From Dehalococcoidia bacterium (GTDB lineage Bacteria > Chloroflexota > Dehalococcoidia > Bin125), in the NCBI GenBank assembly GCA_963663235.2, contig CAXXNO010000004.1, positions 1-64,000 of the forward strand: a DNA stretch of 64,000 nt, in the 5' to 3' direction. Shown here piece after piece: positions 1-51,613 of the stretch (within the stretch, counting starts at the first letter, position 1; each line of letters begins with the position of its first letter). Under the pieces are notes generated by a model that was not told the origin of the DNA, searched no databases, and saw only the letters and a program-made list of their open reading frames with translations. A program made the translations under genes and the position numbers.

Positions 1-2
1 CC

Positions 3-1338: not shown

Positions 1339-1355
1339 GAGCGGGTAGGCAGGTC

Positions 1356-2438: not shown

Positions 2439-2459
2439 CGGGCGGTGCGTTCTCTGGCG

Positions 2460-2873
2460 TCAGCCGAGGGCGACCGTGCCTTCGATCTCGACTTTGGCTC
2501 CCACGTTGAACAGTTCCGTGACGCCCACGAGCGTCACCGCCGGATAGACATCGCCGAGTTCACGGCGCCAGGATTCTCCGATCGCCTTCTGGTTGGCTCG
2601 ATAACTCTCGCCGTCCGTGACGTAAATAGTCATGGACGTGATGTCCCTGACCGTGCCGCCCGTTGCCTCAACCACCGTCTTGAAGTTGGCGAGCGCGCTG
2701 GCGAACTGCGACGCCATGTCCTTCGAGAAAGCCGCGGCGGGCCGGCCGCCGCTACCCTCGACCTGACCGGAGATATAGGCAATCCGGCTGCAGTTCTCCA
2801 CCACCATCGCGTGCTGGTATCCACCCCCGCGCTTCCAGCCCGCGGGAGTAATCCCTTTCAGTTCTGTTGCCAC
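2460..2873 (-). CDS. RidA/YjgF family protein
   Basis: YISGQV, YPAVTLVGV, AKVEIEG motifs; GGAGGA RBS before the GTG. Confidence 0.88.
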   Translation of the reverse strand: MATELKGITPAGWKRGGGYQHAMVVENCSRIAYISGQVEGSGGRPAAAFSKDMASQFASALANFKTVVEATGGTVRDITSMTIYVTDGESYRANQKAIGESWRRELGDVYPAVTLVGVTELFNVGAKVEIEGTVALG

Positions 2874-3133
2874 GTCTCTTCCTCCTTCCGACTTCGTGTC
2901 GCCGGCCCATCCGGCGGCAAGGATAGTGGGTCGCGCTACAAAGAGCACGCTTCACGCGCGGCACGATGGGGCGCCATCGCCGCACCGCTCTGTCACTCCC
3001 TTGATCTCGATGGGGAGACCTGAGACCGGACGCCGGCGATCAATTGACGGTCTCCAGCCGCCGTGTTAGACCGGCGCGAGCACGTCATGGTAAAGGGGAT
3101 CAATCTCTCTCAACGGGAAAGCGTGGACGCCTG

Positions 3134-4102
3134 ATGCGGGCGGCTCTCCTCTCGGTACTCGGACGCCCGCCTGCAGTCGGCGAGGCTCCGACGGTGGCGC
3201 CCGAACGGGGTGAGGCCCTGCTGGAGGTCCTCGCCGCGCCGCTGAACCCGATCGATATCGCGATCGGCGGTGGGCAGTTCTATGGGGGTCATCCGGCCCT
3301 CCCCTACGTGCCCGGGGTGGAGGCGGTGGGGCGGGTCGTGGAGTCGGGTGCTCAGAGCGTCGGCGCCATCGTGTGGGCCGGTCTCGACGGCATGGGGCTC
3401 CGGCGAGACGGCAGTATGGCGGACACGGTGATGGCCAGCGACTCGCGCCTGGTGTCGCTGCCGGAGGGTGCCGATCCCGCAGTCGCCGCGGGGCTGGGCG
3501 CCGCCGGGATGGCCGGCTGGCTCCCCCTGGCCTGGCGCGCTCCGCTGCGCCCGGGCGAGACGGTCCTTGTCCTGGGCGCGACTGGTGTGACCGGCAGGAC
3601 GGCGGTGCAGGCTGCGCGCATTTTGGGTGCCGGGAGGATCGTCGCGGCCGGTCGCAACGAGGAACGCCTGAGGCGGACCGTGGACGTCGGTGCTGACGCC
3701 ACGGTGCAACTAGCGGCAGGGACCGACCTGGCAGCCGCCTTCCGAGACGCCTGCGGCGGCCAAGGACCAGACCTGATCGTTGACCCGCTCTGGGGGCCGC
3801 CGCTGGCGGCGGCGCTGGAAGCCGCCGCCCCGCGCGCCCGCATTGTGCATCTCGGCCAGTCTGCTGGAGCGACCGCAACGATCACTTCCGCTGCCGTGCG
3901 CGGCAAGCAGTTGGAGCTTCTGGGGTTCTCCGACTTCGCTGTGCCGGCGGACGTTTGGGCGGAACACTACCGACGGCTGGTCTCGCATGCGATTGCAGGG
4001 CGGTTGCGCCTTGAGATCGAGCGGGTGCCGCTCAAGGACATCACGGCCGCCTGGCGCCGCCAAACGGCCGGGCCTGAGGTTAAACTGGTGGTGGTGCCGT
4101 AA
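3134..4102 (+). CDS. Quinone oxidoreductase / MDR family protein
   Basis: AAPLNPID, PGVEAVG, VLVLGATGVTG. Confidence 0.88.
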   Translation: MRAALLSVLGRPPAVGEAPTVAPERGEALLEVLAAPLNPIDIAIGGGQFYGGHPALPYVPGVEAVGRVVESGAQSVGAIVWAGLDGMGLRRDGSMADTVMASDSRLVSLPEGADPAVAAGLGAAGMAGWLPLAWRAPLRPGETVLVLGATGVTGRTAVQAARILGAGRIVAAGRNEERLRRTVDVGADATVQLAAGTDLAAAFRDACGGQGPDLIVDPLWGPPLAAALEAAAPRARIVHLGQSAGATATITSAAVRGKQLELLGFSDFAVPADVWAEHYRRLVSHAIAGRLRLEIERVPLKDITAAWRRQTAGPEVKLVVVP

Positions 4103-4134
4103 GGCCGAGACGGTCGGTGTCCGGAAGGGGAACC

Positions 4135-5073
4135 ATGGCGGTTCTGGTGACCGGCGGTAAAGGCTTCATTGGAGCAGTGGTCATCCGTCAGTTGCTAGCG
4201 AGCGGCCAGGCGGCGGTCTGCTTGGACCTAAAGAGCACACCCGGGCGCCTGGCGGATGTCGCCGATCGGACGGTGATGCTGGACGGCGGCATGCCCAGCG
4301 TCCAGCGTCTGACAGAGATCATCCGCGAGCACGACATTGACCGCATCGCACATCTGGTGTTTTTCATATCGGCTCCGGGGAACGCCGACGAAATTCGCAC
4401 AGAAGTTCGGACGATGGTCTCGGAGACGGTCGACTTGTTTGAGGCAGCCCGCCTGACCGGCGTGCGACGAGTAGTCTTTCCCAGCTCCATCCACTACTAC
4501 GGGCCCCAGTGGCTGCATGGCGAGACCCTGCTCGACGAGGAGTGTCCCAGCCTGACGACCGACATCTACGGCGTGAGCAAGAGGCTGGGAGAGACGGTTG
4601 CCTCTGTCTACAACATGCGCGCCAACATGAGTGTCGTCTCCCTGCGCATTCCCGCGGTCTACGGGCCCGGCGGGCGAGTGGGAGCACGGGGAGTGAACGT
4701 GGCCGCCGTTGAGTGCGCCCTGGGCAGGCCCGCGCGGCTTCCCTTTGCCGCCGCCGACAAGGTCTGTGTCGGGCACGTGGAGGACGTCGCTCATGCGGTG
4801 GTGACCCTCTTGGCGGCCGAGAGTCCGCGGCGTTTGGTCTACAACGTGGGCGGCCACACTCTCTCCTACTGGGAGATGGCGTCGTTGATCCACCGCTTCC
4901 TTCCTGAGGCCCAGATCTCCTTTGATGAGACAACCGGCCGGTCAGACCTCCCCTACCTGATCGACTATTCTCGCATCCGGGAGGAGTTTGGCTGTGAGCA
5001 TCGAGGTCTGACCGACGGTTACCGGGATCTGATCAACCACACCCGCCGGGGGGCGGGGCTGCTGGAGGTGTAA
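4135..5073 (+). CDS. NAD-dependent epimerase/dehydratase
   Basis: VLVTGGKGFIG, YGVSK (YxxxK). Confidence 0.88.
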   Translation: MAVLVTGGKGFIGAVVIRQLLASGQAAVCLDLKSTPGRLADVADRTVMLDGGMPSVQRLTEIIREHDIDRIAHLVFFISAPGNADEIRTEVRTMVSETVDLFEAARLTGVRRVVFPSSIHYYGPQWLHGETLLDEECPSLTTDIYGVSKRLGETVASVYNMRANMSVVSLRIPAVYGPGGRVGARGVNVAAVECALGRPARLPFAAADKVCVGHVEDVAHAVVTLLAAESPRRLVYNVGGHTLSYWEMASLIHRFLPEAQISFDETTGRSDLPYLIDYSRIREEFGCEHRGLTDGYRDLINHTRRGAGLLEV

Positions 5074-5076
5074 AAG

Positions 5077-5874
5077 ATGGCGGGACAGATGAAGGGGAAA
5101 GTGGCCCTGGTGACCGGCGCTGGCTCAGGGATCGGGCGCGCGAGTGCCCTCCTGTTCGCACGCACAGGGGCCAAGGTGACAGTCGCCGATCTGGCTGTCG
5201 ATGGAGGCGAGGAGACCGTTCGCCGCATCCGCGACGACGGCGGCGACGCCACGTTCGTGCGCTGTGATGTCGCCAGCGCTTCCGACGTCGAGGCGATGGT
5301 CGCGCGGACCGTGGAGACGTACGGACGCCTTGACTACGCGTTCAACAACGCCGGAATCGAGGGCACGCCTGGGCATCTCATTGCCGATGTACAGGAGGAG
5401 GACTGGGATCGCGTGCACGCCATCAACCTCAAGGGCGTGTGGCTTGGCATGAAGCACGAGCTTCGGCAGATGCTGCGGCAGGGCGGCGGGACCATCGTCA
5501 ACACCGCCTCCGCCGCCGCGCTCGTCGGCTGGCCTGAGGGATCGGTCTACGCCGCTGCGAAGAGCGGGGTCGTCTCCCTGACGAAAACGGCGGCGCTGGA
5601 GTACGCTTCCAAGGGGATCCGGGTGAACGCCGTATGCCCGGGCTTCATTCACACCGCCATGGCCGAGCGTATGTTCGTGACTTACCCCACACTCCCGCAG
5701 CTGTACGCGAAGATGACGCCCACGGGGCGCGTCGGGACGCCGGAGGAGGTGGCGGACGTGGTTGTGTGGCTCTGTTCCGATGCTGCTTCCTTCGTGACCG
5801 GTGTGGCGCTGTCAGTTGACGGCGGGCTCATGGCGGGCCAGGCCGCACCTCCCGTCGGCGTGGGCAGTGAGTGA
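5077..5874 (+). CDS. Short-chain dehydrogenase/reductase
   Basis: TGAGSGIG, NNAG, YAAAK, IRVNAVCPG. Confidence 0.93.
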   Translation: MAGQMKGKVALVTGAGSGIGRASALLFARTGAKVTVADLAVDGGEETVRRIRDDGGDATFVRCDVASASDVEAMVARTVETYGRLDYAFNNAGIEGTPGHLIADVQEEDWDRVHAINLKGVWLGMKHELRQMLRQGGGTIVNTASAAALVGWPEGSVYAAAKSGVVSLTKTAALEYASKGIRVNAVCPGFIHTAMAERMFVTYPTLPQLYAKMTPTGRVGTPEEVADVVVWLCSDAASFVTGVALSVDGGLMAGQAAPPVGVGSE

Positions 5875-6042
5875 TTCGTCGCGAGGCGAGGGGATCTGTC
5901 GACGCGGCGGCCTGCGGTTCGCGTGTAGCGACTCGGTGGGCGCATCGTATATTCTCGCCAGAGCTGCGGGCGATGACGACTCAGTTTTGGTACGGGCACC
6001 GTCAGGACTTCCGGCTGTCCCCGACGGGAGGAGTAGCGGCTG

Positions 6043-7644
6043 TTGACGCTGGCCGAACGATCGCAACGGAATCAATCGTCTCACATCAGTGACCGTGTCA
6101 CCGCTGAGGCGCGGACCGTGCACCGCAATCTCTCCGTACCGGTCCTCTATGAGCACGCCATTCGTCGCGGCGAGGGCAAGATCCTTCAGGGCGGCACCTT
6201 CGCCGTTCGCAGCGGCGCCCGTACCGGTCGCAGCCCGAAGGACAAGTTCGTCGTCCGCGTCCCGGAAACCGCCGAGCACGTGTGGTGGGGTCCACACAAC
6301 CAACCGATGGATCCGGACGTCTTCGAAGGCCTCTGGGAGCGCGCGCTCCGCTACTTCCGAGACAAAGATGCCTACGTGCAAGACTGTTACGTGTCGCAGG
6401 ACCCGACTCAGCGCAAGACGGTCCGCGTCATCACGGAGCAGGCGTACCACAGCATCTTCGCTCGCTCCATGTTCATCCCCAGCGACGAGCCACCGTCCGC
6501 TGCGGAGGCCGATATCACCATCCTGCACGCTCCGTTCCTACGACTCGACGGGGCCAACGATGGGATCAACAGTGACGCCGTCATCGCCCTCCACCTTGCG
6601 GAAGGGCTGATTGTCATCACTGGCACGGCCTACGCCGGTGAGATGAAGAAAGCCGTCTTCACGGCTATGAATTACTATCTGCCGTTGAGCGGCGTACTCT
6701 CTCTCCACTCGGCTGCGAACATGGACGCTGCGTCCGGCAAGACGGCTTTCTTCTTCGGCCTCTCGGGTACGGGAAAGACCACGTTGAGCACGGATCCCGA
6801 TCGTGTGCTGATCGGTGACGACGAGCATGCGTGGACGGAGGAGGGCATCTTCAACATCGAAGGCGGCTGTTACGCTAAGGTGATCCGGCTTTCGCCCGTC
6901 GCCGAGCCTGACATCTTCGAGACCGCCCACATGTTCGGGACGATCATTGAAAACGTCGTTTTCGCTGACGACAGCCGCGTCCCCGACCTAGACGATGACT
7001 CCGTTACCGAGAACACTCGCTCCAGCTACCCCCTGACGTCGCTGCGCGACTACTTTCAGGCCGAGGTGGCTCCGCATCCGTCGCACGTGATCCTCCTCAC
7101 TGCCGACGCGTTTGGGGTCATGCCGCTAATGGCGCGGCTCAGCCACGAGCAGGCGCTGTATCATTTCCTCAGCGGGTACACCTGCAAGCTGGCCGGCACC
7201 GAGACCGGAATCGACGAACCGCAGGCGACGTTCAGCACCTGCTTCGGGGCCCCCTTCATGGCCCTCCATCCCACCGTCTACGCCGGCCTGCTCCGCCAGC
7301 GGCTAGAGATGACCAACGCACAGGTCTGGCTGATCAACACCGGCTGGGTGGGGGGTCCGCCCGGGACCGGCAACCGAATCGCGATCCAAGAGACCCGCAA
7401 GATGGTGCGGGCCATCCTCGACGATGCGCTAGTGGCGGAGTCGTTCCGAACGGACCCACTCTTCGGGTTCGAGGTCCCCACGGGCTGCCCCGGCGTGGCG
7501 CCCGATCTGCTCACTCCGCGTGAGCGCTGGGCGGACAAGGGCGCGTACGATCGCGAATACGCAGCGCTCGCTGAGCGCTTCCGGCAGAACTTTGATCAAT
7601 TCCGGGGACTCGCCGCGCCCGCGGTCGAGGCGGCCGGTCCCTAG
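6043..7644 (+). CDS. pckA: Phosphoenolpyruvate carboxykinase (ATP)
   Basis: TGRSPKDKF, YAGEMKK, GLSGTGKTTLS, LIGDDEH, EGGCYAK; GGAG RBS before a TTG start. Confidence 0.96.
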   Translation: MTLAERSQRNQSSHISDRVTAEARTVHRNLSVPVLYEHAIRRGEGKILQGGTFAVRSGARTGRSPKDKFVVRVPETAEHVWWGPHNQPMDPDVFEGLWERALRYFRDKDAYVQDCYVSQDPTQRKTVRVITEQAYHSIFARSMFIPSDEPPSAAEADITILHAPFLRLDGANDGINSDAVIALHLAEGLIVITGTAYAGEMKKAVFTAMNYYLPLSGVLSLHSAANMDAASGKTAFFFGLSGTGKTTLSTDPDRVLIGDDEHAWTEEGIFNIEGGCYAKVIRLSPVAEPDIFETAHMFGTIIENVVFADDSRVPDLDDDSVTENTRSSYPLTSLRDYFQAEVAPHPSHVILLTADAFGVMPLMARLSHEQALYHFLSGYTCKLAGTETGIDEPQATFSTCFGAPFMALHPTVYAGLLRQRLEMTNAQVWLINTGWVGGPPGTGNRIAIQETRKMVRAILDDALVAESFRTDPLFGFEVPTGCPGVAPDLLTPRERWADKGAYDREYAALAERFRQNFDQFRGLAAPAVEAAGP

Positions 7645-12991: not shown

Positions 12992-14800
12992 TCAGCGGAG
13001 GATCTGGAGCTCGCGCAGCTTCGCTTCCGGCACGACGCCGTCTTCCCAGCCGCGCGCGGCGTAGTACTCCGCTTTCATCAGGTCCAGCTCGCAGACGGAG
13101 CCCGCGGCCGGGCCGCTGCCGGGCTCTTTGAGAAAGCGCTCTGGGAGCGTGTCATGGCTGCCGTCGAAGCCGGCCAGATTGTTGTAGTAGCGCTCCAAGT
13201 TGTAGATGCGCTCGCCCGCCTCCATCACGTCGTCAGCACTGAGCGGGATCCCCACGATCGCTTCGTATTGCGCCGCGTACTCCTCGGCGCCTTCGGAAAA
13301 GGCGGAGAACTTGCAGAGATCCAGGGAATCACTGAAGGCGTGGAGGTCCTGGAAGATCTTGAGCAGCTCGCCCTTGCCTTTCCACTCCAGCGGGTCGGTC
13401 TTCACGGGAATGCCCAGGATCTCGGATGCGGGTGTGTAGCCGCGCAGGTGGCAGGCGCCGCGGTTGCTGGTGGCGTAGCCCAGGCCCTCGCCCTTGAGCG
13501 CGCGGGGATCGTAGGCGGCCACGGACTGTCCCTTGACGGCCATGCCGATCTCGGGGTGGCCGAAGGCGGCGGCGCCCCGGGCGGTGCCGTCGGCGAGGGT
13601 GTTGCCGATGCCTTCGCGGCGCACGATCAGATCGGCGGTTGCGACCATGGCGGCGCCGTCGCCCCAGGCGAGTCCGGGCCCGCTGACGAACTGCCGCTCG
13701 GTGGCTTCCATGTACATGGAGAGGACGTTGCCGATCTCAATGGCGTCCATGCCGTGATCGTTGCACTGGTCGATGATCTTGGCGACGACGCCGACGTCGT
13801 CGTTGTCGCAGTTGGCGCCGATCGACCAGGCCGGCTCGTACTCAAACGATTCCATGCGCAGGCCCTTGTAGGGCCCGTCTTTGATTTCGATCTCTTTCTT
13901 GCAGGCCACGGGGCAGGCGTGACAGGTGGGCTCCGCGACGAGGACGGTCTCCCGGATCGTCTCGCCGCTGAGCTTCTCCGCGCCGGCGAACATGGTCTTC
14001 TGGGAGTTGCGCGTGCCGAGGCCGCCTAATGCGTTGACCGGGTTCGTGAGCACATTGGTGCCGTAGACGGAGAGGCCGCCCTTGTTGGGGCCGGTGACCT
14101 CGCTGTCCAGGATGGTCTTGAGCGCGCGCTGGTGGGCGGCCTTCCACTTGTCGCGGTCCTTCGGCTTGGGCATGGCCTTCTTGTTGGCCTTGACCACCAC
14201 GGCCTTGAGGTTCTTGGATCCGGCGACGGCGCCAGTGCCGCCGCGCCCCGCGGCGCGGTCGTCTTCGTTCATGATGGCGGCGAAGAGCACTTGGTTCTCG
14301 CCCGCTTCGCCAATGGCCATGACGGAGAGGTCGTCGCCATAGCGGTCCTTGAAGATGCGCACGGTCTCGTGGATGCCCTTGCCCCAGACATCGCCGGCGG
14401 GGCGGAGCTCCAGCGTGCCGTTCTCCACGTAGGCGTAGACGGGAGCGTCCGCCTTGCCGGTGAAGAGCAGCGCGTCGAAGCCGGCCCAGCGCAGGCGGGC
14501 GGCGCTCCAGCCCCCCTGGTGACTGTCAGTGACGGTCCCGGTCAGCGGCGACTTCGTCACGAACGCTAGGCGGCCGCTCATTGTCGCTTCGGTGCCGGTG
14601 AGTGGCCCGTTGACGAGGCCGAGCAGGTTCTCCGGGCCGAGGGGGTCGACGTGGGGACCGTTGTCGAGGACGTACTTGACGCCGAGACCGCGGGCGCCGA
14701 TGTAGAGGCGCGCATCATCCTCGTTGATGCCTTCGTACGTGACCGATCCGCTGGTCAGATCGATCCTCGCCACGTGATTGGCGAATCCACCTAATGCCAC
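12992..14800 (-). CDS. aor: Aldehyde:ferredoxin oxidoreductase (W/Mo-pterin)
   Basis: KSPLTG, AAGRGGTGAVAGSKNLKA, CHACPVACK, EYE, NRGACH. Confidence 0.94.
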   Translation of the reverse strand: MALGGFANHVARIDLTSGSVTYEGINEDDARLYIGARGLGVKYVLDNGPHVDPLGPENLLGLVNGPLTGTEATMSGRLAFVTKSPLTGTVTDSHQGGWSAARLRWAGFDALLFTGKADAPVYAYVENGTLELRPAGDVWGKGIHETVRIFKDRYGDDLSVMAIGEAGENQVLFAAIMNEDDRAAGRGGTGAVAGSKNLKAVVVKANKKAMPKPKDRDKWKAAHQRALKTILDSEVTGPNKGGLSVYGTNVLTNPVNALGGLGTRNSQKTMFAGAEKLSGETIRETVLVAEPTCHACPVACKKEIEIKDGPYKGLRMESFEYEPAWSIGANCDNDDVGVVAKIIDQCNDHGMDAIEIGNVLSMYMEATERQFVSGPGLAWGDGAAMVATADLIVRREGIGNTLADGTARGAAAFGHPEIGMAVKGQSVAAYDPRALKGEGLGYATSNRGACHLRGYTPASEILGIPVKTDPLEWKGKGELLKIFQDLHAFSDSLDLCKFSAFSEGAEEYAAQYEAIVGIPLSADDVMEAGERIYNLERYYNNLAGFDGSHDTLPERFLKEPGSGPAAGSVCELDLMKAEYYAARGWEDGVVPEAKLRELQILR

Positions 14801-14854
14801 GGGACGACTCCTTCTACTGGCGCGCGATCGCGTACGCGCATATCAGACGGCCGG

Positions 14855-20215: not shown

Positions 20216-23200
20216 TCAGTACCCGAAAACCAAGAGCTCGCCGACCGAGATGAAGTAGGCCGGACCGCCGGGGGCGCCGATGATGCGGATCCCGTCGCCG
20301 CTGATCGGATCGAAGGTCAGCGTGAAGATCTCGAAGTCGATATCGTTGTCGGCGGCGGGGTAGGCGGGCGTGATCGAGAGGCCGGTGACCTCAGCCCAGA
20401 CGCCGCCCTGGCGAATCTGCACGGTCAGGGACTCGAACCAGCCCCCATCGAAGAAGTTTTTCCCCTCCTGGAACACGACGCGCGTGAACAAGTGCGAGCT
20501 GCCGAAGCTGTAGCCGATCCAGTCTTCGGCAACCGGGTCGAAGCCGTCGAAGGTATCGTATTGGCGTAGGGGGAAGTCCCCGTCCGGCGGCATGTCGCCA
20601 TCACGAATGACCTCAATGTCGGGGTTGCCGGCGCCCGTCGGCGCCGTGACCCGAGCGATGATGGCGCCGAGTTGCGTGAGGTCGCTTTCGTCGCCCGAGG
20701 CAACGGTGATCGAGACGGCATCGGGCGCGCTGGCGAACTCGCCGTCGCCGACCACGAGCTCGAAGGTGAAGACGGTGTCAATGGTGACCGTGGGGGCGGT
20801 GAAGGACGGCTGGACGCCGCTGGGGTCGGACAGCGTCACGACCGGCCCGGCGGTCTGGGTCCAGGCGTATGTCAGGAGGTCACCGTCGGGGTCGCTGGAG
20901 CCGCTGCCGTCGAGCGTCACGAGCGTGGCGGGCAGCGCTGTCTGGGCGTCCCCCGCGTCGGCGATGGGTGGTTCGTTGGCCGGCGTCGTGCCGTCACCGA
21001 CGCCGAAGACCTCGAGCTCCGCGACGGAGATGAACTCGGAGAGGCCACCGGGGGCGCCGAAGAGGCGGATAGCATCGCCTTCGATGGGAGCAAACGAGAG
21101 CGTGTAGGTCTCGAAGGCGAGGCCGTTGTCGGCGGCGGGGTAGGCCGGGGAGATGGAGAGGCCGGAGACCTCGACCCAGACGCCGCCCTGGCGGACCTGG
21201 ATGGTGAGGGAATCGAACCAGCCGCCGTCCCAGTAGTGCGTGCCTTCCTGGAAGACGACGCGGGTGAAGGTCTGGCTGGAGGCGAAGCTGTAGCCGATCC
21301 AGTCCTCGGCGGCTGCGTTGAAGCCGTCGTAGGTGTCGTACTGGCGGGTGGGGTCGGCGGTAGCGGTGGGGTTGGTGGGGGGCTTGTCGCCGTCACGGAT
21401 GATTTCGATGTCGGGGCTGCCGCCGCCGCTGAGAGGCGCGGTTACCCGGGCGATGACGGCGCCGAGTTGGGTGAGGTCGCCGCCGAGGGTGGGGCTGACA
21501 GTGATCGAAACGGCGTTGACCGGGCTGGAGAGCTCTCCGTCGCTGACCACAAGCTCAAAAGTGAAGACGGTATCGGCGGTGACTTCCGGTGCGACGAAGG
21601 AGGGCTGAGCGACGGTGGCGTCGGACAGCGTCACGGCGTCCCCTGCACTCTGGGTCCAAGCGTAGGTCAGGAGGTCGCCGTCGGGGTCGCTGGAGCCGCT
21701 GCCGTCGAGCGTCACGAGCGTGGCGGGCAGCACTGTCTGGGCGCCCCCCGCGTCGGCGATGGGCGGTTCGTTGGCCGGCGTCGTGGCGTCACCGACGCCG
21801 AAGACTTCGAGCTCGCCGACCGAGATGAAGTCATCGGAGCCGCCGGGGGCGCCGAAGAGGCGGATGGCGTCGCCCGGAATGGGGGCGAAGGAGAGCGTGT
21901 AGGTCTCGAAGGCGAGGCCGTTGTTGGCGGCGGGGTAGGCGGGATCTACGGTGAGGCCGGTCGCCTCGACCCAGACGCCGCCCTGACGCACCTGGACGCT
22001 GAGGGAGTCGAACCAGCCGCCGTTCGAGAAGTGCATGCCCTCCTGGAAGACGACGCGCGTGAACGTACGCGGCGATGGATAGGCATAACCGATCCAGTCC
22101 TCGGCGGCGGCGTTGGCGCCGTCGTGGGTGTCGTACTGACGGGTGGGGTCAGCGGTGCCGACGGGGGGCTTGTCGCCGTCGCGGATGACGGCCAAGTCCG
22201 GGTTGCCGCCGCCGGTAGGCGTTGGCACCTGAGCGATGATGTTCCCGTCCTGGGTCAGGTCGCAGGCGTCATCGGGCGGGCCACAGGCGGCCGTGTCCGG
22301 CCCGAACGTGGCGACAAACCCCGCGGCCGTGCCCGGTGCGACGATGGTGTGCGTCCGTGCTCCGCCGTCCGACCACTCGATGAACCCGTACGTCGTATCG
22401 TCCAGCGTCTGCGGGGATGCTGCGCTCACGGTATTGGCGGCGCCAACCATTACCGTCTCGACAAATGGTGTCGCTTCGCTGGAGGAGCCGACCACTAGCG
22501 AAAGGCCTGTCGGGATGGAGTCGAAGCTCAGATCGACGGTATTGGGCTGAGGCTCAACGGATTGGGTACTGGTCAGGCCGCCGGAATCCGTCGCCGTCAA
22601 CCGTAACTCGAGGAATGCGGGGTATTCGTGGTCTGGCCCCACGACCGTTCCGCTGGCGACACCGACATGGCTGGTCAGCGGGTGCTGGTGGCAGTCCGAG
22701 AGCGTGAAGCAGTGGTGCAGGATCACGTCCCAGCTCAGCGCGGACGGCGGCAGCGGACCATCCTCGGGATCGATCGCCGAGCCGGAGAAGTCGATGGAGT
22801 CCCCGACATCCCATTGGTCAGAGATCAGCGGCGTATCGATGGAGGCCGTCGGAGCGCCGTTGCCTACCGTGATGGTCGTGATAGCGGTACTGATGGCGCC
22901 GGCGCTGTCCGTGACTCGCAATCCGACCGTGACGGCGCCGGGAGCGGTGTAGGTGAATGACGGTGCGATGGCGCTGGAGTCGTCGAAGAAGCCGGCTCCG
23001 TCCAGTTCCCAGTCGAAGGTGATGGCATCGCCTGGGTCGGGATCGCTGGAGCCTGAACCGTCGAAATTCACGGTCAACGGGGTGGGCCCGTTGGTCGGAG
23101 TGGCCGCCATCGCCGCGACGGGCGGCTGATTGGCGCTGAAGTAGCGGACGCGGCGGATCGTACCTCCGATGAGATCGACATAGAACAGGTCGCCGTTCGG

Positions 23201-23998
23201 ACCGATCTCGATCTCCACCGGCGTCGCTGCGAAGGCGACGAATGTTTCGATGGTCGCGGGGTCGGGGGTACCGTCTGGTCCTGCGAACATCGCCCAAATG
23301 CATTCTCGCGAGAAGTCGGCGAAGAAAAGCGCCCCGTCATAAGCGGGCGGGTACGCGCCGCCCTCATAGAACGCCAGGCCGGTCACGGAAGAGCTGCCCG
23401 CGCCGCACACCCCGTCGGGCACCACGACGCCGTCGTGGCGATAGGCGTAATGCGGACCGGTCACCGCGCCCGACTCGGCGTATAAGTCCTCGCAGATGTT
23501 CAGGTCCACGGCGTCAAAGGTGGGCTCCCGACCGCCCCCCTCGTAGCAAGGCCAGCCGAAGTTCTCGACGATGCCGTCGGTGGGCGATGCAATCCGGTTC
23601 AGTTCCTCCCACATGCCCCACCCCACGTCACCGACCCAGATCTCGCTGGTCCCGGGTCGCAGAGTCATGCGGAAGGGATTGCGCAGGCCGTAGGCGATGA
23701 TGCGGTCGTCGTCGGCGACGCTGCCGCCGAAGAGGGGGTTGTCCGGGAGGGCCGCGCCCGTGTTCGGATTGACGCGCATGACTGTGCCGTCCAGGGAGAC
23801 CGGGTCCCCGGGCGTGCGCAGGTCTTGGGCGCGCAGATTGCCTCCTTCGGCCGTCGGCAGCGGCATCGGCCCACCGACGCCGCCCGGCGAATCTCCGCAG
23901 GGGTTCACCGGGTCGCCCAACTGGCCCCAATCGGGCTCCCCGAAGCTGCCGCCGTCGCCGGCGCTGAGGTAGAGCGCGCCGTCCGGTCCGAAGAAGAC
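20216..23998 (-). pseudogene. 5'-truncated PQQ-dependent sugar dehydrogenase (GSDH) with PKD domains and three copies of a ~150-aa repeat
   Basis: FGPDGALYLSAGDG, AYGLRNPFR, DVGW, NFGWPCYEG; PKD motifs (FDGSGSSDPD, LTYAWTQ); the frame begins abruptly at the IS3 end. Confidence 0.85.
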
Positions 23999-25240
23999 TG
24001 ACCTGCCCCCCCAGAACCGGTCCAGATCCTGTGCGAGGATTCGGGCCGGTGCGAAGGGAGTCGGCATGGCACGCAAGCGGTACGCGGCCGAGGAGATCAT
24101 CGGCCACCTGCGGGAGGCGGAGGGGGTGCTCGCGCAGGGGGAATCGGTCGCGCCGGTCGCGCGCCGCCTCGGCGCGGCCGAGCCAACGTATTACCGCTGG
24201 CGGCGGGAGGACGGGGGGCTGCGGGTCGACCAGGCCAAGCGGCTGAAAGAACGGGAGCGCGAGAACAGTCGGCTGAAGCGGGTGGTGGCCGATCAGGCGC
24301 GGGCCAACGCGATGGTGCGGGACGGCGCAGCGGGAAACTTCTGAGCCCGGCCAAGCGGCGCCGGGCGACATCCTACCGCACGGACCCGTACGCGGTGGCG
24401 GAGCGGCGGGCCTGCCCGGTCACCGGCCAGGCGCGGGCGACCCAGCGCGACGTGCCCCGGCCGTCCCCGGATGCGCCGGCGCTGATCGCGCGCAGCGTCG
24501 CGCTGGCCCCCCGCTGCGGCCGCTACGGCTCCCGTCGCATCCCGGCCCGGCTGCGCCAGGCGGGCTGGCGGGTGAACCCCAAGCGGGTCGAGCGGCGCTG
24601 GCGTCAGGAAGGCTGGCGGGTCCCCGGGAAGCACCCCCAACGGGGCCGCCGCTGGCTCGCGGCCGGCTCGCTGGTGCGGCGGCGGGCCGAGCGGCCGTCC
24701 CACGTCTGGTCCTCCGCCTTCGTCTTCGACCGCACCGCCGAGGGGCGCCCGGTGCGGATCCTCGCCATCGTGGATGAGGACCACCCGCGAGGGCCTGCGT
24801 CTCGACGTCGCCCGCCGACGGCGCCGCGACGACGGCCTGGCGCGGTTGGCCCAGCTGTTCGTCGAGCGCGGGCCGCCGACGTTTCTGCGGTCCGCCAACG
24901 GCCCGGCGTGCACCGCCACCGCGGTGCGGGACTGGCTGCACCGGGTCGGGGGCACGACCCGCTTCATCGAACCGGGCAGGCCTTGGGCGAACGGCTCTGG
25001 GGAATCGTTCAACGGCAAGCTGCGCGACGCGTGCCTCAATCGCGAGCGCTTCGACACCCTGCTGGAAGCCCAGATCCTCATCGCGGGCTGGCGGCGGGAG
25101 GACAACCCGATCCGCCCCCACCGTGCCCTCGGCTACCGCCCCCCCGCCCCGGAAACGCAGCAACCCCGGGAACGTCCCATGACGCGCGTCCCGGCGATCG
25201 GACTCACTTAACGACTGGTACAACGATCGGGGGCAGGTCA
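23999..25240 (+). mobile_element. IS3-family element, copy 1 (hypermutated, inactive)
   Basis: TGACCTGCCCC...GGGGCAGGTCA termini; orfA 24066-24344; GGGAAAC slippery site 24332-24338; DDE residues lost (WSSAF, RSANG); no TSD. Confidence 0.95.
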
Positions 25241-30370: not shown

Positions 30371-32512
30371 GTGATTCGTTTCGACAGACCAGCTTTTCGC
30401 AGCTCGTTCCTGGCGGGCGTCCTGGTGGGTGTCCTGGCCCTGCTGAGTATCGTGCTTGCGCTGCCCGGATCCGCCGCTGCCGGCCGCGACGGGCGCGCAG
30501 ACGATGGGGTCCCGGCCGAGCCCACCGGATTGGGGGTCGGCGTCCAGCCCGGCGCGCTGGAGGTGGGGGTGTCCTGGGATGACGTTCCCGGAGCGACGTC
30601 CTACTCCCTGAGCTGGCGGCGCCCCGGCGGAGGCTTCCAGCCGGGCGATGCGGTGATCGCCACGGACACCGAGGCCACTCTCGCCGTGCCCGACCATGGT
30701 CTGTGGCGGTTGCGGCTGCAGGCGTGCAACGACGCCGGCTGCGGGCCGGGGCGGGCCCGCGAGGTCGCGCTCGTACAGGAACCGATCGTGACGGGCGCTA
30801 GCGACCCGGCGACGGGTTCCACCCTCACGCTGACGGGCGCCTGTACCGATGTCACCGTCACCGTGCTGGCCTCTGAGGCCGCGTACACGAGCATGTTCTT
30901 GCACTTCGACATGAGCGACATGAGCATGGCGACAGATCTCATGATCACGAACCGCCAAGTCGGCTCGACGATGGTACTCAGGGGCCTTTCGGCGGGGGAA
31001 CTCGTGCTCGGGATCCGCGTGCAGGAGACCGGGGACGTGTTCAGGACGGGGCCCGCATCGCGCAACCCCGACGGCCTCATACACGCGCAGATCTCGGGCT
31101 CGACCGTCTCCTTCGAGGACTACTCCGGGGGCGGGGACGAGGACTTCAATGACGCGGTCCTGCTCGTGACTCGGGCCAGCTGCGGCGGGAGCCCGCCTCC
31201 GCCTCCTCCGGGAAACACGCCGCCGGAATCCCCCGCCGGACACGCCGGCGATCCCCCGCCGGACTCCAACGCCGGCGATCCCCCGCCGGACTCCAACGCC
31301 GGCGATCCCCCGCCGGACTCCAACGCCGGCGATCCCCCGCCGGACTCCAACGCCGGCGATCCCCCGCCGGACTCCAACGCCGGCGATCCCCCGCCGGACT
31401 CCAACGCCGGCGATCCCCCGCCGGACTCCAACGCCGGCGATCCCCCGCCGGACTCCAACGAAGGGACCCCTCCCCAGGAGGACGAAGGCGAGCGGGCAGA
31501 CACCGACAGCTGCGGGTCGAGCGTCCTGCCCGTTCCCCCGCCGGGCGGATGGAGCTACGGCGTCTCGGACACGTCCGACCTGGCGGCGCTGATCGCCGCG
31601 CAGCGGTTCCCGGTCGCCAGCGTGTGGGTGTTCGACGTCCCGACGCAGGAGTTCCTGGGCCACGTTGTCGGCGCGCCCGAGTTCGTGAACACCCTCGACG
31701 ACTCCTCGCTCAGTCCCGGCCGCGTCGTCATCATGCAGCGGAGCGACGCGCCGGGGGGCGTGCCGGACGAGGCGGCGCCGGTCGCTGCGGATGAGCCGAA
31801 GCGGGACGCGCCAACCGTGCTGCCGGTCCCGCCGCCGGGCGGATGGACCTATGGCCTTGCGTGCACATCCGACTTGGCGGCGCTGATCGCCGCGCAGCGG
31901 TTCCCGGTCGTGAGCGTGTGGGTGTTCGATGCCGCCGCGCAGAACTTCCTCGGCCACGGCGTCGGCCAGCCGGAGTTCCTGAACACGCTCGACGCGTCTT
32001 CGCTGACCCCGGGCAGCGTCGTGATCATGCGGCGCACCGGCGTGGTACCCATCGCCCCGCCGCATCAGTTCTACGGGTCCGCCGCCGCCGGATCCGGCAC
32101 CGCCATCGACGGCGAGCTCGTCCCCGACGGCACGGTCATCACCGCCCGGAACGAGGATGGGAAAGCGGTTGGGAGAACGGCGGTCGCCGCGGGCGACTGG
32201 GTCATCTATGTCTACCGGGCGGACGCCGCCAGCGTGACCTTCAGCATCACGGGGTCCGTCCGCAGCAGGCCCTACGACGTCGTCATCGCCGCCCGCACCG
32301 AAGTCGCCCTGGACCTCGCTGCGCTGGATGCCGGCGGCGGCGATGGCGATGCTGCCGCCCGTGGCCCCGAACTCCTCCCGAATACCGGCAGCGGCGGCAT
32401 CGCCGGCAGCGGCGGACTCGCTGGCGGGCGCGGTCTCCTGGCGCTGGCGGTGGCCCTCGCGGTCAGCGTGGCGCTGGCCGGCATGGCCGTCGTGCGGCGC
32501 ACGCGCGCCTGA
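30371..32512 (+). CDS. Sortase-type (LPNTG) surface protein with FN3-like, DUF4114-like and repeated domains
   Basis: Signal peptide; [12 protein letters not shown]; [15 protein letters not shown]; C-terminal LPNTG + hydrophobic helix + RRTRA; GGAGG RBS. Confidence 0.85.
31244..31459 (+). repeat. 8 x 27-bp perfect tandem repeat (GCCGGCGATCCCCCGCCGGACTCCAAC; encodes AGDPPPDSN)
   Basis: 216 bp = 8 identical units, in frame. Confidence 0.97.
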
Positions 32513-33288: not shown

Positions 33289-34242
33289 GGGTCTGTCAGA
33301 TCTCAGACAAGCAACGCTCTGCGGTGGGCGTTCTCATATCCGCCGGGTGGCTAGGCCGTCGCGAGCTCCCCGATCAACGAACGCCAGCGCGTGAGGAAGA
33401 GTCGTCGCTCGCCGGCGAGCGGGACGTGAGCTTCGCCGCGATGTCGGACTCGGAAATACTGTCTCAGCGCATCGAAGGCGGCACAGAAGCGTGACGCTGA
33501 CTGGAAGCTCCCGAAGCCGAGCATCGGGTAGTAACGCTGCTTCACGCCGCGATGGCTCTGCTCGGTGTAGTTGTTCAGGTACTGGGTCGTCCGGTGCCAT
33601 GCCTTCCGGCCGATGATCCAACGGATGGCCCGCCGATACGCGGGGTGCAGGGCAGTGGTGATCCGTGCGGGCTTTCCTTCGGCGACCTCGACGAGCCGCC
33701 GCAGGAACCGACGTGCGGCACGCTTGTCGCGGCGCTCGCTCAGCATCGAGTCGATGAGATCACCACGATGGTCGATCGCCCGGTAAAGGTAGCACCAGCG
33801 CCCGCCGACCTTCACGTAGGTCTCGTCGAGGTACCAAGAGACACCAGCTCGACCGCGTCGCTTCGCTCGCAGCTGCTCACTGACCAACGGAGCGAACCTG
33901 AACTCCCAGGCGCGAACCGTCTCGTGAGTTACCTCGAACCCACGCTGGAGCAGCATCTCAGCGACATCGCGGAAGCTCAGCTTGTAGCGCAGGCGCCACA
34001 GCACCGCGAGCAGTACGACGTCCGTTGGGTACTGGAGTTCGTTGAACGGTGTGCTGGTCCGCTCGTTGAAGACGCTCCGGCAAGCGCGGCAGGCGAACGA
34101 GCGGTATCCAAGCGAGGTGCGCCGGCGACGCCCACTGGTCTGATTCGAGTCACAGCGCGGACAAATCACCATCGGTCCTCTCCTGCATCGCCCATGAGCG
34201 CGACGCTAGCATGAGAGTCGTGGTCTGAGAACTGACAGAGCC
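33289..34242 (-). mobile_element. IS6-family element A (transposase 33351-34172)
   Basis: 954 bp; TIRs GGGTCTGTCAGATCTCAG / GGCTCTGTCAGTTCTCAG; WYLDETY, YLYRAID; second DDE Asp changed (ITTAL). Confidence 0.95.
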
Positions 34243-38854: not shown

Positions 38855-39808
38855 GGTTCTGTCAGATCTGAGGGCAGCGGGGCCAACGATGCGTGGTGAT
38901 CCGGCGAGCGTTGATGGTGTCCTAGGCGACCTGCATCTCCTGGATCAGGGACCGCCAGCGGGCGACGAACAGCGGGCGCCGCGTCGCCAACGGGATCGGT
39001 AGTCCGGGCCGGGGCGGAACGCGAAAGTACTGGCGCAGCGCATCGAAGGCCGCGCAGAACTGGGCAGCGGAAGCGAACCGCCCGAAGCCCCGCATCGGAT
39101 AGTAGCGCTGCTTGATGGCGCGGTGATCCTGCTCAATCCAGTTGTTGAGGTATTGATTGCAGCGATGTCGCACCTTCCGCCCGACGATCCACCGGATCGC
39201 CTTGCGATACGCGGGATGCGCGTCGGTCGTGATGCGTAAGGGCTTCCGTTCGGCGATCTGTATGAGACCCCGCAGGAAGCGTCGCGCGGCATGCTTGTCG
39301 CGGTGCGCGCTCAGCATCGAATCGAGCAGCGCGCCCTCCCGGTCGATCGCGCGATAGAGGTAGCACCATCGCCCGGCGACCTTCACGTAGGTCTCATCGA
39401 TGTACCAGGAGACGCCCGCGCGACCGCGCCGCTTGGCGCGAAGCCGGTCCGCCAGGAGTGGCGCGAAGCGGAACTCCCAATCGCGGATCGTCTCATGCGT
39501 CACCGTGTAGCCTCGCTCGAGGAGCAGTTCGGCGACGTCCCGGAAGCTGAGCTTGTACCGCAGGCGCCACAGCACGGCGAGCAGCACGAGGTCCGTCGGG
39601 TACTGGAGATCGTTGAAGGGCGTGCCGGTCCGCTCGTTGAAGCGCCGTCCACACGCGCGACAGTTGAATCGCTGGTAGCCTAGCGTCGTGCGATGCCTGC
39701 GCTTGGTCGTCGCAGTCGAGCGGCAGTGCGGACAGTGCATCGGCGTCTCCTCGTTGCGTCATGAACGAGGCGACGCTACGCCGACGAGCCCTGAGATCTG
39801 ACAGAACC
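38855..39808 (-). mobile_element. IS6-family element B (intact transposase 38922-39740)
   Basis: 954 bp; TIRs GGTTCTGTCAGATCTGAG / GGTTCTGTCAGATCTCAG; CPHC zinc motif, DETY, TTD, IEQDHR. Confidence 0.96.
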
Positions 39809-39821
39809 GCACCTGATGGGC

Positions 39822-40352: not shown

Positions 40353-41599
40353 TGACCTGCCCCCGATCGTTGTACCAGTCGTTAAGTTAGTCCGATCGCC
40401 GGGAGGATTGTCAGGGGACCTTCCCGGGGTTGCTGGGTCTCGGGGGCCGGGGGGCGATATCCCAGCGCACTGTGGGGCCGGATCTGGTTATATTCCCGCC
40501 GCCAGCCCTCTATGAGAACCTGGGCTTCGAGCAGCGTGTCGAAGCGTTCGCGGTTGAGGCACTCGTCGCGCAGCTTGCCGTTGAAGGACTCCACATAGCC
40601 GTTCTCCCAGGGACTGCCGGGCTCGATGAAGAGGGTCGTGACGCCGACCCGGTGCAGCCAGTTACGCACCGCGGTGGCGGTGAACTCCGGGCCGTTGTCG
40701 GACCGCAGGGACGTCGGCGGCCCGCGCTCGACGAAGAGCTGGGCCAGCCGCGCCAGGACGTCGTCGCTGCACAGCCGGCGGGCCACGTCGAGACTCAGGC
40801 ACTCGCGCGTGGTCCTCGTCCACGATGGCGAGGATCCGCACCGGGCGCCCCTCGGCGGTGCGGTCGAAGACGAAGTCGTAGGACCAGACGTGGTGGGGCC
40901 GTTCGGCCCGCCGCCGCACCAGCGAGCCGTCCCCGAGCCAGAGGCGGCCCCGCTTGGGCTGTTTCACGGGGGCCCGCAGGCCTTCCTGGCGCCAGAGCCG
41001 TTCGACCCGCTTGTGGTTCACGCGCCAGCCTTCCTGACGCAGCAGGGCCGTGATGCGGCGGTAGCCGTAGCGGCCGAAGCTCGTGGCCAGGGCGACGATT
41101 CGCGCGATCAGCGCCGGCTCATCCGTGGACGGCCGGGGCACAGAGCGCTGCGTCGCCCGCGCCTGGCCAGTGACCTGGCAGGCCCGCCGCTCGGACACGG
41201 CGTACTGGTCGGTGAGATGGGTGGTCGCCCGGCGCCGCTTGGCCGGGCTCAGAAGTTTCCCGCTGCGACGTCTCGCAACATCGCATTGTCCAACGCCTGG
41301 TCCGCCACCAGCCGCTTCAGGCGGCTATTCTCCCGTTCGAGCTCCTTCAGCCGCTTCGCCTGATCGACCCGCAACCCGCCGTACTCCCGGCGCCAGCGGT
41401 AAGAGGTCGGCTCGCTGATCCCAAGCGTCCGCGCCACCGCTCCGATCGTCTGGCCCTGGGCCAAGGCCACTTCCGCTTCCCGCAGATTGCCGATGATCTC
41501 CTCGGCCGCGTACCGCTTGCGTGCCATGCCGGCTCCCTTCCCGATTCCCGGAATCCTCTCACTCCGCGTGGATCAGTTTTTTGGGGGGGGGGCAGGTCA
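40353..41599 (-). mobile_element. IS3-family element, copy 2, with 5-bp target duplication GAGTC
   Basis: TGACCTGCCCC termini; GAGTC at 40348-40352 and 41600-41604; orfA 41249-41527; orfB keeps WSYDF, RSDNG and ESFN but has a +1 frameshift near 40811. Confidence 0.96.
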
Positions 41600-41634: not shown

Positions 41635-41652
41635 CTGAGATCTGACAGAACC
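41635..41652. mobile_element. Solo IS6 terminal inverted repeat
   Basis: CTGAGATCTGACAGAACC identical to 39791-39808; the inside flank resembles the upstream end of IS6 B. Confidence 0.85.
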
Positions 41653-42412
41653 CGTTCAACGATCTCCAGTACCCGACGGATCTCGTGCTGCTCGCCGTGT
41701 TGTGGCGTCTGCGGTACAAGCTCAGCTTCCGCGACGTCGCCGAGCTCCTGCTCCAGCGGGGCTACGAGGTCACCCACGAGACGATCCGGAGTTGGGAGTT
41801 CCGCTTCGCGCCGCTGCTTGCGGACCAGCTCCGGGCCAAGCGGCGCGGCCGAGCGGGCGTCTCCTCGTACATCGACGAGACCTACGTCAAGGTCGCGGGC
41901 CGGTGGTGCTACCTCTATCGGGCCATCGACCGCGATGGCGACCTGCTCGACTCCATGCTCAGCGCGCACCGCGACAAGCACGCCGCGCGACGCTTCCTGC
42001 GGCGGCTGGTCGATGTGGCAGGCACCAAGCCGCTGCGCGTCACGACCGATGCCCATCCGCCCTACCGCCGGGCGATCCGCTGGATCCTGGGGAGGAAGGT
42101 GCGGCACCGATGCAATCGATACTTGAACAACCTGACCGAGCAAAGCCACCGGGCCGTCAAGCAGCGCTACTACCCCATGCTGGGCTTCGGGAGTTTCGCG
42201 TCGGCCGCCCGGTTCTGTACCGCCTTCGATGAGCTGCGCCAATACTTCCGCGTTCGCCAACGAGGAGCCGAATGGGTGCCGCTTGCTACACAGCGACGGC
42301 TCTTCGTCCAGCGCTGGCGGTCGCTGATCGCGGAGATGCAGGCAGCATAGAGTCAACGGTCGGGGGAACGTCTCGCCCGGCTTATCCTGGGGCCCTGAGA
42401 TCTGACAGAACC
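41653..42412 (+). mobile_element. IS6-family element C, 5'-truncated
   Basis: Starts mid-gene at FNDLQYPTD; stop at 42350; TIR at 42395-42412. Confidence 0.93.
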
Positions 42413-48334: not shown

Positions 48335-49292
48335 GGTTCTGTCAGATCTGAGGGCAGCGGGGCCAACGATGCGTGGTGATCCGGCGAGCGTTGATGGTGT
48401 CCTAGGCGACCTGCATCTCCTGGATCAGGGACCGCCAGCGGGCGACGAACAGCGGGCGCCGCGTCGCCAACGGGATCGGTAGTCCGGGCCGGGGCGGAAC
48501 GCGAAAGTACTGGCGCAGCGCATCGAAGGCCGCGCAGAACTGGGCAGCGGAAGCGAACCTCCCGAAGCCCCGCATCGGATAGTAGCGCTGCTTGATGGCG
48601 CGGTGATCCTGCTCAATCCAGTTGTTGAGGTATTGATTGCAGCGATGTCGCACCTTCCGCCCGACGATCCACCGGATCGCCTTGCGATACGCGGGATGCG
48701 CGTCGGTCGTGATGCGTAAGGGCTTCCGTTCGGCGATCTGTATGAGACCCCGCAGGAAGCGTCGCGCGGCGTGCTTGTCGCGGTGCGCGCTCAGCATCGA
48801 ATCGAGCAGCGCGGCCCTCCCGGTCGATCGCGCGATAGAGGTAGCACCATCGCCCGGCGACCTTCACGTAGGTCTCATCGATGTACCAGGAGACGCCCGC
48901 GCGACCGCGCCGCTTGGCGCGAAGCCGGTCCGCCAGGAGTGGCGCGAAGCGGAACTCCCAATCGCGGATCGTCTCATGCGTCACCGTGTAGCCTCGCTCG
49001 AGGAGCAGTTCGGCGACGTCCCGGAAGCTGAGCTTGTACCGCAGGCGCCACAGCACGGCGAGCAGCACGAGGTCCGTCGGGTACTGGAGATCGTTGAAGG
49101 GCGTGCCGGTCCGCTCGTTGAAGCGCCGTCCGCATGCCCGGCAGTTGCAATCGCTGGGGTAGCCGAGCGTGGTGCGGGGCTTGCGCTTGGTCCGTCGCGG
49201 TCGAGCGGCAGTGCGGACAGGGCATGGCGTCTCCTCGTCGCGTCATGGGCAAGGCTACGCCACGCCTACGAGTCCTGAGATCTGACAGAACC
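48335..49292 (-). mobile_element. IS6-family element D (frameshifted)
   Basis: Same TIRs as B; near-identical to B over 48335-49130; extra base near 48813; divergent, indel-rich 5' part. Confidence 0.95.
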
Positions 49293-50639: not shown

Positions 50640-50642
50640 CTT

Positions 50643-51581: not shown

Positions 51582-51613
51582 GGTTCCCCTTCCGGACACC
51601 GACCGTCTCGGCC

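Follow-up and report, generated by a model that had tools for sequence, protein, structure and literature searches.

What process rewrites an insertion sequence (IS) toward higher GC by a single class of transversion until its transposase is dead? The question is raised by a 1242-bp IS3-family element at positions 23999-25240 (forward strand; GC 74.6%) of the 64,000-nucleotide stretch of contig CAXXNO010000004.1, from a Dehalococcoidia bacterium, that we analyzed and refer to as the window. Bacterial pseudogenes and dead mobile elements are expected to drift to AT, with transitions in the majority. The family of this element, called A-type here, has moved the opposite way by one transversion class, A:T>C:G, about 15-fold faster than its ordinary divergence predicts, and the same shift has occurred repeatedly, in independent lineages.

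A one-way A:T>C:G load in a 17-copy IS family

An earlier reading, made from the sequence of the window only, had described 23999-25240 as one IS3 copy with a one-directional A:T>C:G load relative to a sister copy at 40353-41599. We searched the genome (G000; 2.75 Mb in 14 contigs; GC 67-70%) by blastn and found that the loaded element is one of 17 A-type copies (12 full and five cut by contig ends), which are 97-99.4% identical to 23999-25240 and which a genome self-comparison showed to be the most abundant repeat family. The supposed sister at 40353-41599 (reverse strand; GC 69.2%) has a GACTC target duplication and is an unloaded element of the same IS group, but at 84.5% identity it belongs to another subfamily, the B-type. 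The genome contains two full B-type copies and one short fragment, as well as one further, more distant, intact-looking element (C14).

The direction of change had been counted correctly. Among the 196 aligned sites that differ between the A and B copies of the window, A>C (37) and T>G (28) toward A stand against five C>A and no G>T, the remainder being C<>G (56), transitions (67) and A>T (3). Polarisation with B, C14 and elements of other genomes (G005a, G003d and G010) as outgroups left four sites not polarisable and did not remove the bias, with 75 of the 102 polarised changes in the A clade being A:T>C:G (38 A>C and 37 T>G, with 3 C>A, 4 G>T, 15 transitions and 5 others). Transitions toward GC amounted to five (A>G 0, T>C 5), and C<>G changes to four against the 75 of the favored class. 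Each full A copy carries 36-49 A:T>C:G changes and 2-8 others; the copy at 23999-25240 has 45 derived A>C or T>G changes and three others. Over the same interval, the GC content of the lineage climbed from approximately 71% to 74.6%.

A closer comparison was available in genome G003, from another genus of the same family, whose elements are 95% identical to A and have intact motifs. From one of these elements (G003a) to A, 59 sites differ (28 T>G, 23 A>C, 5 C>A, 2 G>T and 1 T>C), so that 51 of 59 are A:T>C:G. The two full G003 copies carry 7-13 hits each.

The A-type transposase is dead and the ends are conserved

The left terminal inverted repeat, TGACCTGCCCCC (23999-24010, forward strand), does not vary among the 12 full A copies and the two B copies. 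The right end (25207-25240, forward strand; 34 nt), which closes with the inverted repeat GGGGGCAGGTCA, is unhit in the copies aligned and has exact matches in seven metagenome contigs as well. Inverted repeats were found in all copies. The earlier statements that no stop codons had arisen and that the terminal repeats were intact both hold, the long frame being open, and the load spares the ends: none of the 32 A/T sites in the first 100 nt is hit, nor is the right end.

Between the ends, orfA (24066-24344, forward strand; 92 aa; HTH_Tnp_1, PF01527, 58.7 bits) is an open frame in which A>C and T>G replacements are present. Near its end, at the orfA/orfB junction, GGGAAAC (24332-24338, forward strand) is kept in all relatives aligned and is, to judge from its letters, a candidate -1 frameshift site; in the intact relatives MG124, MG121 and C14, orfB overlaps the preceding orfA in a different frame. 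On the same strand follow the N-terminal part of orfB (24345-24784), with the HTH_21 and first catalytic Asp regions, and the C-terminal part (24783-25211), with the rve/rve_3 core. The homologous parts of the B copy in the window match HTH_21 (PF13276, 65 bits), rve_3 (PF13683, 102 bits) and rve (PF00665, 44 bits), and orfB of MG124, from a metagenome contig, scores 250.4 bits on the IS3-family model NF033516 (cut-off 160).

In the A-type orfB, WSYDF has become WSSAF (TCC at 24713-24715, formerly Tyr; GCC at 24716-24718, formerly Asp), RSDNG has become RSANG (GCC at 24894-24896, previously Asp) and ENGYVESF has become ANGSGESF, with the Glu of VESF retained. At both Asp positions, 15 of the 15 A-type copies covering the motifs read Ala, which bears out the claim that two DDE aspartates were destroyed; from the DD(35)E spacing of IS3 elements, we take these residues to be the catalytic pair. 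At 24776-24784 (forward strand), GAGGACCAC differs from GAGTA-CAC of intact relatives by one T>G and one additional C, which shifts or splits the orfB frame and which occurs also in the B copies and in three G003 elements (G003a-c). Because both Asp residues are lost and orfB has an additional base, the A-type element cannot be autonomous. It is a member of a non-autonomous, protein-dead subfamily of the IS3 family (presumably IS407-like, a group name that we base on motif resemblance), in which the ends alone are still conserved.

One A-type copy (C10:3697-4937) lacks the additional base, reading GCGTA-CAC like intact relatives, and has the rest of the load; its frame probably reflects conversion from another subfamily, or else a frameshift with a separate history. 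The Tyr codon TAC that precedes the first Asp now reads GAC in 12 A-type copies and TCC in three, and must therefore have been hit twice independently. The sequence-only reading had likewise proposed two independent hits, which stands, but had divided them between the A and B copies, whereas both lie within the A family.

Independent contigs carry the same variants

Contigs from public runs of four studies (2019-2025; runs X1, X7, X9 and X12), recorded as sponge metagenome or coded organisms and with no sequencing platform on record, were compared with the window over 20 kb around the element. Contigs from the runs of all four studies carry the element with the same variant class, and in X1, from the 2019 study, the A<>C and G<>T classes supply 51 of the 69 differences from copy A. 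The X7 and X9 flank contigs show no other letters over 4768 and 2131 nt; they enter the IS ends by 27 and 25 nt, below our 31-nt rule, and were not counted as bridging. Spectra of variants rest on the 40 of 249 rows that were examined. Among these, five of five within the IS are C>A or G>T and represent the older A/T state held by other copies, and the 17 in the right flank comprise 8 transitions, 5 A<>C/G<>T, 3 C<>G and 1 T>A.

A sequencing, assembly or polishing artefact has to be considered for a metagenome-derived genome, in which repeats are difficult to assemble, and A>C and T>G form a known miscall class in some short-read chemistries. However, the changes are structured across 17 copies at separate loci and in another genome, and contigs built independently from runs of four studies carry the element and differ from copy A mostly by C>A or G>T, which are older A/T states found in other copies, although platform independence is not established for these runs. 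We regard an artefact as extremely improbable. As a separate observation, the X7 and X9 contigs carry a divergent allele at window positions 14069-14813 (22-28 differences in 745 nt) between adjoining stretches that are exact, which could be a strain variant or a paralogue.

In X7 and X9, k-mer depth is approximately 420-690 in the IS and approximately 6-30 in most flank bins. This exceeds what 17 copies would give, and suggests that other organisms probably hold the element. The depth counts in favor of an imported load, one acquired in another host or replicon in a MutT-type mutator state and then transferred horizontally. Also in favor of such a history, the A clade is present in two genera with only one transition among 59 differences, so that transfer was recent. 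Against it, 43 A:T>C:G sites are polymorphic among the 12 full copies, which means that the process continued after arrival unless there were many separate imports, and no mutator host was identified. We consider import unlikely.

The rest of the genome does not share the bias

The sequence-only reading had left a choice between a targeted mutagenic system and a genome-wide bias visible in unselected DNA. Fourfold sites of 133 paralogue pairs showed 795 transitions, 381 A<>C/G<>T, 1482 C<>G and 43 A<>T differences, and 65 repeat pairs of at least 90% identity outside the family showed 1085 transitions, 376 A<>C/G<>T, 558 C<>G and 91 A<>T. For the 17 A-type copies, A<>C/G<>T accounted for 1880 of 2264 summed pairwise differences (1.46% per nt vs 0.30% for other classes). 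Five large recent duplications gave 0.058% per nt for this class vs 0.18% for the others, and recent duplications with similar ordinary divergence had 19 of 77 differences in it. In two truncated remnants from the IS group of the A-type, each present as a single copy (C4:694302 and C12:40643), 26 private changes were counted, of which one is A:T>C:G and 17 are G:C to A:T.

These results bear on the possibility that a genome-wide A:T>C:G bias, or a past mutator episode such as loss of MutT, was recorded in unselected IS DNA. The high GC content of the genome would agree with it, and the mutT model had no match above its cut-off in G000 (six Nudix matches, the best with 34.6 bits); however, this negative is uninformative because only 3 of 14 control genomes yield a match above that cut-off. 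Against a genome-wide cause, transitions exceed A<>C/G<>T at fourfold sites, where C<>G is the largest class, in contrast to the 4 C<>G and 75 A:T>C:G of the A clade; the recent duplications and the right-flank variants examined likewise have the class in the minority, and the single-copy remnants drift to AT. Fourfold sites, other repeats, duplications, remnants and flanks are thus ordinary or AT-drifting, by which the genome-wide alternative is refuted. We hold it to be very improbable and, together with an artefact, nearly excluded.

Instead, the process affects only certain full-length IS lineages present in multiple copies. On account of this restriction the word "targeted" is true as a description; a dedicated silencing system is not established by anything we observed, as discussed below.

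The process ran in more than one lineage

Strictly private changes were counted in a panel that includes three intact metagenome elements. The A:T>C:G class made up 11 of 12 private changes in A, 27 of 46 in G005b and 7 of 23 in G005a, the loaded lineages, vs 0 of 28 in B, 0 of 7 in MG124, 1 of 17 in MG121/123, 2 of 39 in G003d, 1 of 24 in C14 and 2 of 50 in G010. The heavily changed G005b, from a third genome, has A:T>C:G changes at 59 of 309 conserved A/T sites and transitions at two of those sites. It adjoins G005a and is sister to intact metagenome elements on the tree. Hit sites of G005b and A overlap beyond chance (24 observed vs 13.2 expected, p = 3e-4). It follows that the process operated on at least two separate occasions. 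The more distant loci L021-L100 (63-78% protein identity, unrelated phyla) were not used.

Two arrangements of these relatives may be recorded here. In genome G005, the lightly loaded G005a and the heavily loaded G005b lie head to tail, 4 nt apart (L003:1469-2700 and 2705-3953), with many short IS fragments nearby. In genome G003, a truncated A-clade element abuts an intact-looking element from a subfamily of 75% identity (L020; C1:1649964-1652024), and this composite occurs twice (also at 1191572-1193632).

A-type copies exchange sequence

Several observations indicate recombination within the family. Target duplications were found at none of the 12 full A copies, whereas both B copies have GACTC; we read this as loss of the duplications through later recombination between copies. 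The four-gamete test failed for 661 of 2556 informative site pairs, the failing fraction being 0.10 below 25 nt and 0.35-0.56 beyond, and a shuffle test for linkage disequilibrium based on r2 was borderline (28 of 500 shuffles). In the second B copy (B2), all seven differences from the first (B1) within B positions 890-981 are the A-type state, one of them specific to G000 A copies; this is a conversion tract.

Allele frequencies differ between the classes of change. Since the ancestor of the A clade, 65 A:T>C:G variants have arisen, of which six are singletons and 22 are fixed, while the 16 other variants include eight singletons and no fixed transition (Fisher p = 6e-4; Mann-Whitney p = 5e-4). 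A past mutation burst would give the same skew. No lightly loaded intermediates were present among the 12 full A copies of G000 (all 36-49 hits), and this absence of a ladder of loads is what concerted evolution predicts. Recombination and mismatch repair between copies, with the load as a by-product, accord better than a defence with the skewed frequencies, the missing target duplications and the conversion tract.

A proposed mechanism: concerted evolution with biased repair of A·G mispairs

What was observed, namely a directional spectrum, its confinement to full-length multi-copy lineages, recombination and a frequency skew, could be joined in the following way. A-type copies exchange sequence by ectopic recombination and gene conversion and so evolve in concert. 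Wherever an A:T in one copy met a C:G in another within a heteroduplex or repair patch, an A·G mispair would form, a MutY-type adenine glycosylase would excise the A, and the C:G allele would be copied into the partner. Any A:T>C:G change arising in one copy could in this way be pushed through the whole family, and the supply of such changes might be raised if recombination-linked repair synthesis placed 8-oxo-dGTP opposite A. No such push would act on transitions, on C<>G or on C:G>A:T changes, which would stay private or be lost. The outcome would be a rise in GC across the whole family, in one direction only and equally on both strands, which destroys the transposase as a by-product of repair rather than as a defence. 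We give concerted evolution driven by A·G-mismatch-biased (MutY-type) repair, our preferred reading, a probability of roughly 0.4.

MutY-type glycosylases remove A from A·G mispairs. We infer A·G-specific repair as the biased step and, as its agent, the product of the sole MutY-like gene of G000 (248 aa; L104:1429-2175, reverse strand, equivalent to C12:439751-440377), in which profile positions 3-212 of 277 are matched with 206.6 bits, corresponding to the catalytic domain alone. An Fpg gene is present in the genome, as are a DinB-like gene and two ImuB-like genes. The likeness to MutY short-patch correction lies in the outcome, as conversion of A·G to C:G would yield exactly this class of change in this direction on both strands. 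The differences are that the recognised role of MutY is to prevent G:C>T:A mutations, and that the G000 protein is without a matched C-terminal domain. Within the literature our search reached, no role was found for MutY as a driver of the evolution of a repeat family.

The process also resembles GC-biased gene conversion and concerted evolution, in that copies exchange sequence, A:T>C:G alleles stand at higher frequency, as expected when conversion makes the favored derived alleles commoner (singletons 6 of 65 vs 8 of 16), and the family shifts to higher GC. It departs from them in that the A:T>C:G transversion is favored without the A:T>G:C transitions, and in that the substrate is a dead IS family in which approximately one-fifth of A/T sites have changed against an ordinary divergence of approximately 0.3%.

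A number of points weigh against biased repair of A·G mispairs, the first being that the MutY-like protein falls below its family cut-off (206.6 vs 286.5 bits). By a rough estimate, ordinary input would supply about 0.5-1.5 A:T>C:G changes per copy lineage for every four or so ordinary changes, so that a load of 36-49 hits would need nearly all such mutations arising in 30-90 copies to sweep; as the assembly shows 17 copies, the supply is tight. No other full-length copy of the G005b lineage was found in G005, where the nearest element is G005a at 81% and the rest are short fragments. Of the 13 differences between the two full G003 copies, 12 are A<>C/G<>T, which suggests biased input and not biased spread alone. 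Usual GC-biased conversion favors A:T>G:C transitions too, which here number 5 of 102, and we know of no such report for the well-studied high-copy IS of other bacteria. Finally, two families of REP-like repeats in the genome (21 and 32 copies) show no A:T>C:G excess; perhaps they are too short to recombine, in which case their ordinary spectrum says nothing about the recombination model. The probability was set at 0.4 because the supply is tight, G005b is without sibling copies and the G003 copies differ almost exclusively by A<>C/G<>T.

If repair of A·G heteroduplexes is the cause, it would provide an enzyme-level mechanism for GC-biased conversion in bacteria and would mean that concerted evolution can inactivate transposons without a defence system. 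Whichever cause applies, the numerous parallel copies of the A family allow the process to be measured.

Sequence context and possible mutagenesis tied to propagation

Both strands are hit alike, at 33 of 190 A and 34 of 170 T sites, and hits depend on the neighboring bases. An A followed by G or C was hit at 57 of 255 sites and one followed by A or T at 10 of 103, while an A preceded by A was hit rarely (2 of 53). The trinucleotides GAC (12 of 54), GAG (14 of 39), TAC (6 of 17) and CAG (14 of 56) were hit, and AAC (1 of 25), GAA (2 of 25) and GAT were cold; no motif wider than the neighboring bases was found around hit sites. Codon position is indifferent, 21 of 91 A/T sites being hit at position 1 and 45 of 181 at position 2, and the non-coding ends have two of 29 A/T sites hit. 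Typical replacements are D>A, E>A and V>G. Unloaded lineages change chiefly at third codon positions, as in 13 of the 20 coding private changes of B.

Two local mechanisms were rejected. A G-run hotspot does not account for the hits, since no G stands before 40 of the 64 hit sites and only 5 of 64 follow a run of two or more. Dislocation or slippage that copies a neighboring base fails for the hottest common context, GAG>GCG, which has no adjacent C. In Cherry 2022 (bioRxiv 10.1101/2022.10.28.514265), T>G hotspots after G runs are described as real in many bacteria; the substitution class is the same as ours, and the context is different, as just given.

A Pol IV-type enzyme that misincorporates oxidised dGTP could supply the biased input suggested by the G003 copies, the tight supply and the lone G005b, and the trinucleotide preferences agree with this only in part. 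According to Castell 2025 (PMC12318082), Pol IV with oxidised dGTP gives A>C at sites with a 5' G and/or a 3' C, yields Ala and Gly codons and spares A/T-flanked sites. It is conceivable that mutagenesis is tied to propagation itself, with a low-fidelity polymerase such as Pol IV placing oxidised dGTP opposite A during copy-out synthesis; dead, trans-mobilised lineages would then retain the A:T>C:G changes of each hop, which functional lineages would purge. The spectrum is that of oxidised-dGTP misincorporation, with GAC, GAG and TAC among the hit trinucleotides, A/T-flanked sites spared and the expected replacement products; a DinB-like gene is present, immobile remnants are unloaded, and independent lineages share hit sites more often than expected.

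The numbers, however, are difficult for mutagenesis at each hop. Private A:T>C:G changes number only six across 12 copies, or approximately 0.5 per hop, so that the shared hits, at least 36, would need approximately 70-100 serial hops, and no intermediate copy is found in the genome. To our knowledge, no such error rate has been described for IS3-family transposition. Moreover, AAC and GAA, which are cold in the A family, are hot in Castell 2025, and CAG is hot here. The wider MutT-deficiency and Pol IV signature of that paper is alike in its dominant A:T>C:G class, its spared A/T-flanked sites and its Ala and Gly codons, and is unlike in being genome-wide in mutT strains, whereas here one IS lineage per genome is affected and trinucleotides agree in part. 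We regard propagation-tied mutagenesis as a doubtful, though tenable, explanation. We file biased conversion and oxidised-nucleotide mutagenesis acting on a repeat family alike as known kinds of process in a new setting.

Comparison with a dedicated system

A further possibility is a system dedicated to recognising repeated or mobile DNA and disabling it by one-way mutation, in the manner of repeat-induced point mutation (RIP). Fungal RIP changes C:G>T:A at CpA, lowers GC, acts in the sexual cycle and involves cytosine methyltransferase-like proteins. The likeness lies in one-way point mutation that accumulates in repeated mobile DNA, with loss of its coding capacity, while unique DNA is left alone. 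Here, by contrast, A:T>C:G changes raise GC, stop codons do not appear and other repeats stay untouched; any duplicated DNA longer than a threshold is subject to RIP, whereas the IS6 copies, large duplications and other repeats of this genome are ordinary.

What speaks for a dedicated system is that the load is restricted to full-length multi-copy elements while flanks, other repeats and remnants are spared, that both catalytic Asp residues are gone in every copy covering them, and that the process is seen again in another lineage and across three genomes. The literature located by our search offered no described bacterial counterpart and, within the same coverage, no account of an A:T>C:G load on bacterial insertion sequences. 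On the other side, no candidate gene was found in a search that covered repair genes only, and we know of no enzyme chemistry that converts A directly to C. Other multi-copy IS are untouched, IS6 copies being 99.6-100% alike; the unloaded relatives B and C14 persist in the same genome; recent private changes are ordinary; and the A-type family, as the most abundant repeat family, was not stopped early. A dedicated RIP-like system is, in our judgement, quite improbable. Diversity-generating retroelements do not offer a closer parallel: they change adenines on one strand to any base, whereas here A and T are hit equally and only to C or G.

In a broader form, one could suppose that bacteria belonging to this sponge-associated family possess a process, functionally equivalent to fungal RIP but chemically different, by which repeated mobile DNA of full length is picked out and converted A:T>C:G until the transposase is dead, whether as a dedicated defence or as a transversion-specific molecular drive. 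This, too, we think unlikely. If mutagenic copying or a targeted system proved true, bacteria or their elements would have a novel means of keeping transposon load under control.

Neighboring features and other repeats

The element at 23999-25240 is flanked by a gene for a large protein with PKD and F5/F8-type-C profile matches (20219-23998, reverse strand), whose glucose/sorbosone dehydrogenase domain begins at profile position 139 of 332, which indicates that the 5' part of the gene was lost at the IS boundary. The region with IS copies is bracketed by a 6.4-kb inverted duplication (window positions 1-6423 and 49293-55715; 99.8% identical), whose 12 differences are seven transitions, two C<>G and three A<>C/G<>T.

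IS6-like elements lie at 33351-34172 (reverse strand; an open reading frame for a 273-aa transposase), 38855-39813, 41652-42335 and 48335-49296 of the window. One of them directly adjoins the B-type copy, and the family, whose other copies in the genome are 99.6-100% alike, has an ordinary spectrum. The IS6-like group was tried as a second loaded family and rejected: one pair is asymmetric (11 vs 50) because one copy is AT-richer, yet the private changes are mixed.

The two REP-like palindromic families have a common core, ACCTCACCC, with 111 core occurrences that are often clustered (for example at C4:167342-168717, C6:126706-128420 and C12:366544-368395). The ImuB-like Y-family polymerase genes (C12:57236-57634 and C9:142331-142729) lie within a duplicated segment of 9.3 kb, which starts right at the right end of an A-type copy (C12:52953-54202). 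Lastly, a 713-aa open reading frame at 30371-32512 (forward strand) of the window encodes eight tandem nine-residue units, AGDPPPDSN, with a probable signal or anchor, as judged from its translation.

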